A program made the position numbers and the translations under genes. 9,825 bases of DNA from a virus (lineage: Duplodnaviria > Heunggongvirae > Uroviricota > Caudoviricetes): IMG/VR virus record IMGVR_UViG_2713896737_000030; one strand, given 5' to 3'. The notes under the pieces were generated by a model. The model had not been told where the DNA came from, searched no databases, and was given only the letters and a program-made list of their open reading frames with translations. Positions 3,676 to 5,824 of the stretch are shown piece by piece; the stretch's first letter is position 1, and every line of letters starts with the position of its first letter.

Positions 3676-3975
3676 ATGAAACTTAAATATTCTGGCTTAA
3701 CTGCCAGTGGCAACACTCACCCTAAATTTACGCGCGGTGATATTTACCGCGACCAGTACGGCGGCACGGTAATGATTAAGGGCGTGGAAGAACGGCGCGT
3801 AACCTACCGCCGTGAAGGTTACGAATATGATTGCGTGATGCCTGTTTATCAGTTCCGGCGTGATTTTTCTCTGGTACAGACCGCGCCGCATAACGTGCCC
3901 ACCAGCAACGCCAGGGCACGGGCAAACATCCAGAAGCTGAAAACCATGGTTAACGGATTCAGGGGCAAGAAATGA
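3676..3975 (+). CDS. Hypothetical protein (99 aa)
   Basis: GGAGAA SD upstream. Stop overlaps the ATG of the replication gene (ATGA at 3972-3975). Confidence 0.65.
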   Translation: MKLKYSGLTASGNTHPKFTRGDIYRDQYGGTVMIKGVEERRVTYRREGYEYDCVMPVYQFRRDFSLVQTAPHNVPTSNARARANIQKLKTMVNGFRGKK

Positions 3976-5372
3976 AAAGCGCACCGAACTTAAAAAAACA
4001 GCCTTACGACAAGATGACCGAAGTCATTATTTTTGCGGGTAGTGATGCCTGGGCACATGCGAAACAGTGGCAGGAACAGGACGGGCGACTGGCTGGCGAT
4101 AATGTGCCTCCCGTTGTGCTGGCTGATGATCAACTGGATGAACTGGCAGAACTGAGAATCATCGACGAGGGGCGCTATTGTGTCCGGCTGTACAAGGCAG
4201 GCCACATCAGGCCATCAAATATTAATGCCATTGCGCACAAGCTGGCGGCGGCGGGTGTAACTGATGCGAATTATTACCCCGAAGGGATGCACAGCCATAT
4301 GCGGGAGAACTGGCGCGAATACCTGGAACGGGTGCGCGGGAAAGAGCCGGCGGAAGAAAAAAACCACCAGCGAAAAACCACGCTACCGATGAGCGTTGGA
4401 TCTACCGGATACGACACGCAACTGGATTACGTGGTTAAGGGGATTATTCCGGCGGTATCGCTATGCAGCATATACGGGGCTAGCGGGTCCTATAAATCAT
4501 TCCTTGCCGGATCGTGGGCGTGCCATGTTGCCACTGGTCGCCAGTGGGGAGGCCGCAGGGTTGCACATGGTGCGGTTCTCTATGTGGTTGGTGAAGGCGG
4601 TATAGGTGTTCCGCGTCGTGTAAAAGCCTGGGAGGTTGTGCACGATGAGCAGGTGAAAAATCTGTATCTGGTAAACCGCCCCATCTTTCCGGCTGCCCCG
4701 CTTGATGTTGATGAAATGGTTATCGCTGCCCGTCAGGTGGAGCGGGAAACGGGTAAACCTGTACGCATGATTATTCTGGATACGCTGGCGCGTTGCTTTG
4801 GTGGGAATGATGAAAATGATTCCCGTGATATGGGGGCGTTTATCCGTGGTTGTGACGAACTGAAACGACGCACAGGGGCCACGGTGCTGGTGGTTCACCA
4901 TTCCGGCAAGGATGAGACGAAAGGCGCGCGCGGTTCCAGTGCATTTCGTGCTTCGCTGGATGCTGAATACCGGATACGCAGGGAGGACGCAGGAAGCGAA
5001 GCGCTGGTTATCTCATGCACCAAAATGAAGGACGCGGAGGAACTCAAAGAAGCCGCATATGACTTACGCGTGGTGGAGCTTTTTACCGACGCTGACGGTG
5101 AATTAATCACGTCGCTGGTGGTGGTGGATGATCCGCGCCCTCCTGTTGAACTGGAGCGCATCGAGGAGGCAGGGAACAAGACGGAAAACCATACCGCGCT
5201 ATGGGGGTGCATCCGTTCACGCACACAGAACGGCGACAAGTGCACGATCCCGCTGTTACGTGATGACATGAAAAAGCTGGGGTATGAAATGAAAAACTTC
5301 CGGCGCTGGCTGTACAAGCTGGAAAAAGATGGGGTTATTCGTATCGATGGGGATGATGTAGCGCCGCTATAA
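3972..5372 (+). CDS. Replication initiator ATPase/helicase, RepA-like RecA-fold (AAA_25-type) domain with N-terminal extension (466 aa); PICI pri/rep-like
   Basis: Walker A-like GASGSYKS, Walker B-like RMIILD, and downstream VVHHSGKD...RGSSA motifs typical of RepA/DnaB-like RecA-fold ATPases. Positioned after alpA and followed by an iteron array. Confidence 0.85.
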   Translation: MKSAPNLKKQPYDKMTEVIIFAGSDAWAHAKQWQEQDGRLAGDNVPPVVLADDQLDELAELRIIDEGRYCVRLYKAGHIRPSNINAIAHKLAAAGVTDANYYPEGMHSHMRENWREYLERVRGKEPAEEKNHQRKTTLPMSVGSTGYDTQLDYVVKGIIPAVSLCSIYGASGSYKSFLAGSWACHVATGRQWGGRRVAHGAVLYVVGEGGIGVPRRVKAWEVVHDEQVKNLYLVNRPIFPAAPLDVDEMVIAARQVERETGKPVRMIILDTLARCFGGNDENDSRDMGAFIRGCDELKRRTGATVLVVHHSGKDETKGARGSSAFRASLDAEYRIRREDAGSEALVISCTKMKDAEELKEAAYDLRVVELFTDADGELITSLVVVDDPRPPVELERIEEAGNKTENHTALWGCIRSRTQNGDKCTIPLLRDDMKKLGYEMKNFRRWLYKLEKDGVIRIDGDDVAPL

Positions 5373-5563
5373 AAGTGAGGAGCAAAAGCGAGGGGGATAG
5401 AAAGAGGGCCAAAATTAGCCCGCTCTCCCTCACTTTTCGACCTGTATACATCCTCAAAAGTGAGGGGTAAAAAAATACTTATGAAACACACACATAGAAA
5501 AACCGAAAATCCCAACTGCGACGAAGTGAGACGCTTGAAAAAGTGAGGCGAAAAAGTGAGAGG
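5372..5563. repeat. Iteron array (candidate replication origin): at least 6 copies of AAGTGAG, consensus (A)AAAGTGAGG, including one inverted copy
   Basis: Direct copies at 5373-5379, 5457-5463, 5524-5530, 5541-5547 and 5554-5560; inverted copy at 5428-5437 (CCTCACTTTT). Degenerate copies at 5385-5396 and 5401-5410. Lies immediately downstream of the rep gene. Confidence 0.65.
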
Positions 5564-5572
5564 TTGCGAGAA

Positions 5573-5824
5573 ATGACCCAAAAACGCAGAGACAGAACAG
5601 AGCCAAAATATAAAGCGTTAGACATGACTGAGCACACCTTAAAGGTGGCAATCAGAACGATAGACCGCCACACGCGGGAAGGATACGCGAAGGAACATCC
5701 CGACCTGATAAGCGCATTCATGACCACGGCGGCGGCAAACTTTGCCACGCTGACAGAACGGGAGATTGCCGAAGCGGAACAGGTAACAACCATCAACGTT
5801 AAAACCGGAGAGGTGGAATTATGA
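5573..5824 (+). CDS. Hypothetical protein (83 aa; start uncertain, alternatives at 5543 and 5620)
   Basis: ORF-track 5543..5824, but the 5543 start would lie inside the iterons. ATG at 5573 has a GAGAGG SD-like sequence upstream. Stop overlaps the ssb start (ATGA at 5821-5824). Confidence 0.5.
   Translation: MTQKRRDRTEPKYKALDMTEHTLKVAIRTIDRHTREGYAKEHPDLISAFMTTAAANFATLTEREIAEAEQVTTINVKTGEVEL

Follow-up and report, generated by a model that had tools for sequence, protein, structure and literature searches.

Gene content of the island

The window, which is the whole 9,825-bp stretch of DNA analysed here (IMG/VR record IMGVR_UViG_2713896737_000030), is a Gram-negative phage-inducible chromosomal island (PICI) of E. 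coli O157:H7 EC4115/TW14359. The element of interest is the spacer between rep, which encodes a helicase-type initiator, and the next gene; this spacer is filled by an array of short repeats (iterons) and is considered here as a candidate replication origin. By megablast, the window is 99.9% identical to E. coli O157:H7 EC4115, TW14359 and many other genomes, in which it is located between roxA (ycfD) and phoQ. Its genes lie on a single strand in the order integrase (int; 1-1230, + strand), alpA-like helix-turn-helix (HTH) regulator, icd-like fragments, small open reading frames (ORFs), DUF4222, rep, an 83-aa ORF, ssb, perC, lambda-E-like capsid protein, lambda-D-like decoration protein and small terminase. 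An integrase, an alpA-type regulator and an initiator reading in one direction, in an island of 10-20 kb at a non-prophage site, identify it as a PICI. The EC4115 island (1535498-1546717, 11.2 kb) has already been catalogued as such (Fillol-Salom et al. 2018 supplement, PMC6092414), and the PICI EcCICFT073 uses the same ycfD-phoQ attachment site (PMC6092414 supplement). No published experiments on helper-phage-dependent induction, replication or packaging of this allele were found in the literature.

The iteron array downstream of rep

The window contains six copies of the word AAGTGAG (5373+, 5429-, 5458+, 5524+, 5541+ and 5554+). All of them are found within 5373-5560 and none elsewhere; 0.80 copies would be expected over the whole window, and a count of six was reached in none of 200 dinucleotide-preserving shuffles. 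The post-hoc choice of this word was allowed for by scoring every 7-mer together with its reverse complement over all 200-bp spans and keeping the highest count. The maximum is also six, at 5361; none of 300 dinucleotide-preserving shuffles attained it, the shuffle maximum being five, reached once. The tests thus support non-chance clustering of the repeats, of which a preliminary description of this DNA had counted at least six.

The + strand of the spacer is rich in A and G (AT skew up to 0.6), and a cluster arising by chance or as a compositional artefact of a purine-rich, low-complexity spacer might be suspected. This explanation has a negligible probability: it is refuted by the shuffles and by the conservation of the architecture in about 150 loci (see below), and one of the copies is inverted.

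The 10-mer AAAAGTGAGG is present as an exact match at four positions (L1, I1, C1 and R3; Table 1) and with one mismatch at two more (L2 and R4). The inverted copy, which had also been recorded in the preliminary description, forms with the central iteron a perfect 11-nt inverted repeat with an 18-nt spacer. From 5' to 3', the layout is left iterons, inverted iteron, central iteron, A+T-rich stretch and right iterons; G+C content falls to 0.33-0.37 in 60-nt windows at 5440-5519, compared with 0.45-0.58 in the flanks. The array occupies the entire spacer (5371-5572). Its first iteron runs into the rep stop codon (TAA 5370-5372); at the other end, a degenerate copy, GCGAG at 5566-5570, stops 2 nt short of the ATG at 5573. 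The cluster therefore lies where it had originally been placed, while the full array is slightly longer than first described, extending from the rep stop codon through 5570.

Alignment with relatives reveals decayed copies at three further family positions: after 5393 (L3), at 5438-5442 (I2) and at 5516-5522 (R1). L2 and R5 are GCGAG variants in this copy.

The array also bears on the start of the next gene, for which a mechanical ORF spans 5543-5824. The start at 5543 had been called implausible, and it is indeed false: GTG 5543 is the core of iteron R3, and the RefSeq start is ATG 5573. In relatives, 5543-5572 shows the A-to-G switch that accompanies the rep allele, and homology to islands with other rep-ori cassettes starts only at ~5566-5571. 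GAGAGG at 5558-5563, the tail of R4, doubles as the Shine-Dalgarno sequence of this gene, 9 nt ahead of ATG 5573. A scan of the whole window at the Rfam gathering threshold gave no RNA families; consequently, a reading of the spacer as an RNA element is unsupported.

Table 1. Positions in the window of rep, the iteron array and the gene that follows
Feature	Position	Strand	Sequence or remark
rep, 466-aa initiator-helicase	3972..5372	+	RefSeq 'helicase RepA family protein', WP_000833628.1
Rep N-terminal domain, aa 1-125	3972..4346	+	common to other PICI initiator classes
Rep C-terminal winged-helix domain (WHD), aa ~400-466	5169..5369	+	predicted iteron reader
Codon AAC, Asn442	5295..5297	+	predicted specificity residue for iteron base 4
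Iteron L1	5371..5380	+	AAAAGTGAGG; overlaps rep stop codon
Iteron L2	5384..5393	+	AAAAGCGAGG, one mismatch; 13 bp after L1
Inverted iteron I1	5428..5437	-	CCTCACTTTT on + strand; intact
Second inverted copy I2	5438-5442		decayed to CGAC; CTCAC in relatives
Conserved spacer element	5441..5450		CCTGTATACA; between inverted and central iterons
Central iteron C1	5456..5465	+	AAAAGTGAGG; inverted repeat with I1
A+T-rich stretch, probable DNA-unwinding element	5466..5520		low G+C; relatives even more A+T-rich at the same place
Decayed iteron position R1	5516-5522		in the A+T-rich stretch
Iteron R2	5522..5531	+	cgAAGTGAGa
Iteron R3	5539..5548	+	AAAAGTGAGG; its GTG 5543 is the false ORF-track start
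Iteron R4	5552..5561	+	AAAAGTGAGA
Degenerate iteron R5	5562..5571	+	ggttGCGAGa; GGTGAGGAATG or GGTGGGGAATG in relatives
Next gene, 83-aa protein	5573..5824	+	phrog_1231; true start ATG 5573 (RefSeq)

Conservation of the array and exchange of the rep-ori cassette

A megablast search with rep plus the spacer against 5426 complete E. coli genomes gives three kinds of match. The first is full-length, at 74-100% identity. The second covers only nucleotides 1-392 of rep and is found in islands whose initiator is annotated as a primase or DUF927. The third begins at query position 1595-1600 (window 5566-5571) and covers only the 83-aa gene and ssb; EDL933 is included in this group. Since islands with other initiators match only rep nucleotides 1-392 and then resume at 5566-5571, the helicase core, WHD and iterons move as one unit, exchanged as a single cassette whose right breakpoint falls exactly at the end of the array.

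In islands with other initiators, at the same site or similar ones, the repeats of the equivalent spacer are unrelated: TGTCTACC iterons accompany D5-like initiators and TAACCCGCA iterons accompany DUF927 initiators. Even where initiators and iterons differ in this way, islands keep the 83-aa gene and ssb at 92-97% identity; judged from these alignments, the 83-aa gene is outside the rep-ori cassette.

Nine E. coli relatives with RepA-type initiators were compared (L002-L010). The spacer is 205-208 bp long in eight of them and 484 bp in L008. All nine share the same order of elements: two to three direct iterons after the stop codon, a ~25-nt spacer, an inverted pair, CCTGTATA(C/T)A, one direct copy, a ~45-nt A+T-rich stretch and then four to five direct iterons up to the next start codon. 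Two iteron alleles, AAAAGTGAG and AAAAGTGGG, are found among the E. coli relatives. GCG iteron variants recur in L006, L007, L010 and L133.

When 45 distinct E. coli-type spacers (~205-208 bp) are aligned, the same layout is seen, and nearly all 45 contain CCTGTATA(C/T)A or a sequence very similar to it. In a wider set, the architecture is kept in about 150 loci, which come from several genera of Enterobacterales and from one Oceanospirillaceae metagenome-assembled genome (MAG).

Two side observations concern these spacers. The element CCTGTATACA is kept whichever iteron allele is present, and it might be bound by a host factor or belong to the region that melts first. In L008 (E. coli ETEC1738), the spacer (2405-2888) contains a second, partial set of iterons and A+T-rich sequence, and a ProQ/FinO-family gene is found in place of the 83-aa gene and ssb.

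Domain structure of Rep

The only Pfam match of Rep is AAA_25 (RepA/DnaB-like) at aa 148-315 (E=2.4e-43); it contains neither of the iteron-plasmid initiator domains Rep_3 and RepA_N. In a phmmer search of the PDB, the only significant solved relative is the RSF1010 RepA helicase (1g8y, E=0.0055, aa 150-321); the other matches with E<=1, a DnaA-related protein and an alanine--tRNA ligase, are both weak (E=0.4-0.6). A Foldseek search with the full-length model returns RecA-fold proteins only (RadA, Rad51, KaiC and T7 gp4). The core of Rep is of the RecA-fold RepA/DnaB type, and no homology is seen to the ATPase cores of Rep1, Rep2 and PriRep5 of the staphylococcal pathogenicity islands (SaPIs).

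As the full-length AlphaFold2 model was poor, the C-terminal domain was modelled alone. It is predicted with high confidence to adopt a winged-helix fold, and its best structural matches are the winged helices of ORC, Cdc6 and MCM proteins. In the predicted structure, Asn442 is the last residue ahead of the third (recognition) helix, aa 443-452. Rep is a RepA/DnaB-like hexameric helicase (RecA-fold, superfamily (SF) 4 type) with a short N-terminal domain and a predicted C-terminal WHD; no primase domain is found in the E. coli Rep. Having a helicase ATPase core and a predicted C-terminal winged helix in one polypeptide, Rep would belong to the class of self-loading initiator-helicases, which in functional terms is that of the SaPI Reps.

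The N-terminal 125 aa are 62% identical to the D5-like initiator of EcCICFT073 and 67% identical to the DUF927 initiator of EDL933. Because three initiator classes with different iterons have this domain in common, it can be ruled out as the origin reader. The domain (window 3972-4346; 4742-5116 in L093; 500-874 in L011) is thus common to RepA-type helicases, D5-like primases and DUF927 proteins, and it always follows a DUF4222 gene whose stop codon overlaps the rep start. It has no Pfam family; in PHROGs it matches the N-terminal part of the 'DNA primase' family phrog_864.

Covariation of residue 442 with iteron base 4

A single one of 471 alignment columns separates islands with GTGAG iterons from those with GTGGG iterons among 10 E. 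coli Rep proteins: the former have Asn442 (..GYEMK-N-FRRWLYKLE..) and the latter have His. The relationship was extended to 80 loci from GTDB species representatives (Enterobacterales and the Oceanospirillaceae MAG) and 80 metagenome loci. A total of 152 loci had the motif K-x-[FLM]-x-[RK]-W and enough downstream sequence to be scored; residue x was compared with the dominant GTGnn word in the 235 bp past the stop codon.

Asn is paired with GTGAG in 47 of 50 loci, His with GTGGG in 43 of 44 and Lys with GTGGG in 28 of 29; GTGCG is found with Ser in all 21 loci and with Gly in seven of eight. The pairing therefore holds in 146 of 152 loci. The other six have fewer than three copies of any GTGnn word, and there are no discordant loci. 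Asn-adenine and His/Lys-guanine are classical side-chain-to-base preferences. A weaker, second covariation can be observed for the residues that follow: K-H-L-K-R goes with GTGGGC (7/8), K-H-F-x-R with GTGGGG (29/29) and K-N-M-R-R with GTGAGT (3/5). This suggests that residues 443 and 444 may read iteron position 6.

Two points qualify this pairing. Firstly, the 3' end of rep adjoins the iterons, and linkage could give some covariation. Linkage as the explanation is disfavoured by four results. Across 200 bp of 45 E. coli-type origins, only the iteron-position-4 columns are perfectly associated with Asn versus His, and the interleaved spacer columns are not. Column 442 is by far the most informative on iteron class in an alignment of 105 distinct C-terminal domain sequences. 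The Rep proteins of L120 (GTGAGG, six copies) and L109 (GTGGGG, six copies) differ in their last 76 aa only at N442H, and the same type of switch is found in three or four further near-isogenic backgrounds. Lastly, a neighbour-joining tree was built from 99 distinct C-terminal domains after column 442 had been masked; on this tree, parsimony requires at least 11 changes of the iteron base and at least 12 of the residue.

Secondly, three metagenome origins of the Asn type (L107, L128 and L135) have GTGGGG copies in the right arm; their left and central iterons are GTGAGG. Discrimination is therefore partial, or not every iteron is needed. These hybrids suggest either recombination inside the origin or tolerance of non-cognate copies.

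The preliminary description had proposed that the repeats are bound by the island's own initiator and had called for a comparison of iterons among related islands. That comparison has now been made and bears the proposal out at the level of sequence: the iterons co-vary with the initiator class and, in the loci scored above, with one predicted WHD residue. We lean slightly towards a more specific view, in which the single N-cap residue of the recognition helix sets the iteron that is accepted; its change, together with concerted change of about 10 dispersed iterons, would have given rise to mutually orthogonal PICI replicons at least 11 times. If residue 442 reads base 4, Rep or its WHD should favour AAAAGTGAGG over AAAAGTGGGG, and N442H should shift this preference. 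Literature searches brought up no paper in which this iteron or the residue-base relationship is described; the text of the PMC6092414 supplement does not contain iteron sequences, and Fig. 2a of that paper, which presents iterons of several E. coli PICIs, could show this iteron.

The repeats might instead be bound by a protein other than Rep, such as the 83-aa protein, AlpA or, as a pac site, the small terminase. The island does encode a small terminase and several small uncharacterised proteins, and binding of the iterons by Rep is itself something we infer. This alternative is nevertheless very improbable. The 83-aa protein can be ruled out as the iteron binder, as both it and SSB are conserved (92-97% identity) in islands with entirely different iterons; the late and terS modules vary independently of the array; and the sole protein feature that tracks the iterons, with no conflicts, is the Rep WHD residue.

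A probable replication origin read by its own Rep

In Gram-negative PICIs, the origin is located just 3' of the initiator gene and consists of two iteron sets flanking an A+T-rich region (PMC6092414); in EcCICFT073, the rep-ori segment supports plasmid maintenance (PMC6092414). In SaPIs, six to 12 iterons with an A+T-rich centre are found right after rep, and the Rep proteins are helicases whose C-terminal WHD binds iterons of 5-6 nt (Qiao et al. 2022, PMC9371898). The spacer in the window agrees with this pattern. It lies immediately 3' of the initiator gene, in the position noted in the preliminary description as typical of PICI and SaPI origins (PMC6092414, PMC9371898); it has two iteron sets (5371-5465 and 5522-5571) on either side of the A+T-rich stretch (5466-5520); and its iterons are matched to the cognate initiator both at the level of initiator class and at the level of a single residue.

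The spacer at 5371-5572 is thus very probably the vegetative replication origin (ori) of a Gram-negative PICI, read by the Rep encoded upstream. Several observations form the basis for this: the repeats exist and cluster non-randomly, their architecture is conserved, rep core, WHD and ori are inherited as a module, a WHD fold is predicted, and residue and base co-vary. That Rep binds the iterons, melts the DNA and loads itself, and that the spacer actually supports replication, is proposed by analogy with the SaPI Reps and EcCICFT073.

By this analogy, a helper phage would induce the island operon, and the WHDs of Rep would bind the ~10-bp iterons, A(3-4)GTGAGG, on either side of the ~55-bp A+T-rich stretch. 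Specificity would depend largely on the N-cap residue of the recognition helix. At core position 4, an A would call for Asn442, a G for His or Lys and a C for Ser or Gly. A Rep multimer would melt the A+T-rich stretch at 5466-5520, and the helicase would then load itself, behaviour that has been demonstrated for SaPI Reps. Since Rep does not contain a primase domain, priming would be expected from host DnaG. Transcription from upstream presumably passes through the origin, as a scan of 5200-5700 for sigma-70 promoters and intrinsic terminators found no + strand features; the single match, a - strand terminator-like hairpin at 5421-5406, is at the background rate.

The location of the array within a unidirectional operon, free of predicted + strand terminators and promoters in this region, would also suit a regulatory role. 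The repeats could be operators through which Rep or another island protein controls transcription of orf83-ssb-perC, and not a start site for replication. Iterons at the end of the array overlap the ribosome-binding site of orf83, and plasmid iterons can double as autoregulatory operators. This explanation is improbable. The downstream genes are exchanged independently of the iterons, and L008 keeps the array without having those genes; two iteron sets around an A+T-rich stretch after a helicase-WHD gene are the origin layout proven for SaPIs and EcCICFT073 (PMC6092414, PMC9371898). Moreover, a regulatory role could coexist with origin function and need not replace it.

Some further observations weigh against the reading of the spacer as a working, Rep-driven origin. 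In SaPIs, at least two iterons are found on each side, in opposite directions (PMC9371898). This is not the case here: the right-arm copies are all +, the left arm reads +, +, -, +, and the only opposed pair (5428-/5456+) lies to the left of the A+T-rich stretch; the relatives share this arrangement. The only Gram-negative replicon that has been tested experimentally is that of EcCICFT073, which has another class of initiator and other iterons. The full-length AlphaFold2 model of Rep has low confidence (mean pLDDT 66). Consensus DnaA boxes (TTWTNCACA) and IHF sites (WATCAANNNNTTR) are absent from 5370-5575. Finally, this copy of the array is eroded, with six cognate GTGAG cores compared with a family median of 10 (range 5-11) and about four to five family iteron positions decayed; for this reason, the O157 copy may be a weak origin.

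Such erosion would also be expected if the spacer were an origin by descent only, now weak or non-functional in an island undergoing domestication in O157:H7 EC4115/TW14359. In addition to the reduced number of cores, L2 and R5 have become GCGAG variants, and L3, I2 and R1 have been lost relative to the family pattern. The neighbouring icd-like gene is annotated as a pseudogene, and the island is nearly clonal (at least 99% identity in hundreds of genomes), which fits vertical inheritance. On the other hand, the rep, int, ssb, capsid and terS ORFs are all intact, and at least two good iterons are left on each side of the A+T-rich stretch. The GCG variants may be tolerated, given that they recur in relatives, and the same allele is found in O145:H28 and, according to the supplement of PMC6092414, in O55:H7. 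An origin by descent only is unlikely, although it is the least improbable of the alternatives to a functional origin read by Rep.

Comparison with known replication systems

One of the closest known systems is EcCICFT073. It belongs to the same island family, occupies the same site and does not differ in the order of its genes (DUF4222, initiator, ori, small ORF, ssb, perC, capsid E and decoration D); its ori likewise follows the initiator gene on the 3' side and has iterons flanking an A+T-rich stretch, and the N-terminal 125 aa of the two initiators are related as described above. The two islands differ in the rest of the initiator and in the origin sequence. EcCICFT073 has a 584-aa D5_N/DUF5906/Pox_D5 (SF3-type) initiator, TGTCTACC iterons and a 289-bp spacer, whereas the window island has a 466-aa RepA/DnaB-like (AAA_25) helicase with a WHD, AAAAGTGAGG iterons and a 200-bp spacer.

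The Reps of SaPIbov1, SaPI1 and SaPI5 are self-loading initiator-helicases with a C-terminal WHD for short iterons (Ubeda et al.; Qiao et al. 2022, PMC9371898), an arrangement that is predicted here from sequence. Both systems have iterons immediately after rep, an A+T-rich centre and specificity matched to the cognate Rep. In contrast to the Rep in the window, which is of the RecA-fold RepA/DnaB type with 5'-3' polarity expected from its family, the SaPI Reps are AAA+ proteins of SF3/SF6 with 3'-5' polarity. The two systems share no sequence homology, their iterons have different orientation patterns, and the host here is Gram-negative.

Among proteins of solved structure, RepA of RSF1010/IncQ (1g8y) comes closest in sequence to the helicase core, and both fall in the Pfam family AAA_25. 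In IncQ plasmids, the iterons are bound by a separate protein, RepC, and RepA does not have a DNA-recognition domain; the Rep described here, in contrast, has its own predicted WHD.

T7 gp4-like primase-helicases with the same WHD are found in Xenorhabdus, Pectobacterium, Serratia and Morganella. Their core and WHD are 55-72% identical to those of Rep, and iteron arrays follow the gene. They obey the residue-base pairing, with Asn/GTGAGG in Xenorhabdus and Lys/GTGGGGG in Pectobacterium, Serratia and Morganella. They differ in having an N-terminal Zn-ribbon and Toprim primase, in place of which the E. coli Rep has the 125-aa PICI domain. The fusion proteins (L013, L058 and others) are ~680-690 aa long.

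The alpha protein of satellite phage P4 combines a primase with an SF3 helicase and acts at a bipartite origin (ori and crr) that is distant from, and not directly downstream of, its gene. It has no similarity to the window system in helicase or iterons. It does resemble Rep in being a satellite-encoded multifunctional initiator, with a C-terminal domain that binds repeated octamers in the origin (PMC6092414 discussion and general knowledge). The element in the window would function in the manner of the SaPI and EcCICFT073 origins, and its initiator falls outside the SaPI Rep, D5-like and iteron-plasmid Rep families.

Other features of the island and its lineage

O157:H7 lineages carry different PICIs. 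That of EC4115/TW14359 is the 11.2-kb RepA-type island at ycfD-phoQ, and that of EDL933/Sakai is 15.5 kb long. The integrase of the latter is closely related (~97-98% identity to the EcCICFT073 integrase), its initiator is of the DUF927 class with TAACCCGCA iterons, and its capsid and protease genes are of the HK97 type. EDL933 (L011) and the window have no more than the 83-aa gene and ssb in common, at ~92% identity.

In a 7-mer scan of the window, the sole other standout repeat cluster is a pair of ACATGGTAATTACC copies (2454-2470 and 2484-2500), which are 30 bp apart and have the palindromic core GGTAATTACC. The pair is located in the gap between two annotated icd-like gene fragments and could be a paired operator.

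Implications

The result supplies an origin annotation for phage satellites of an already known class, in a pathogen lineage of importance. It is unsurprising in itself, and it helps in assigning gene starts and in annotating such islands. It also draws attention to a PICI subfamily in which a RepA/DnaB-type helicase has its own predicted winged-helix origin reader, a convergent counterpart of the AAA+ SaPI Reps. The residue-base relationship yields a testable prediction, namely the effect of N442H combined with an A-to-G swap in the iterons, and bears on the orthogonality of these replicons and on possible cross-talk between co-resident satellites. If true, it would mean that an SF4 self-loading helicase has a specificity code that is simple and open to engineering, and it would document in nature how origin and initiator co-evolve.

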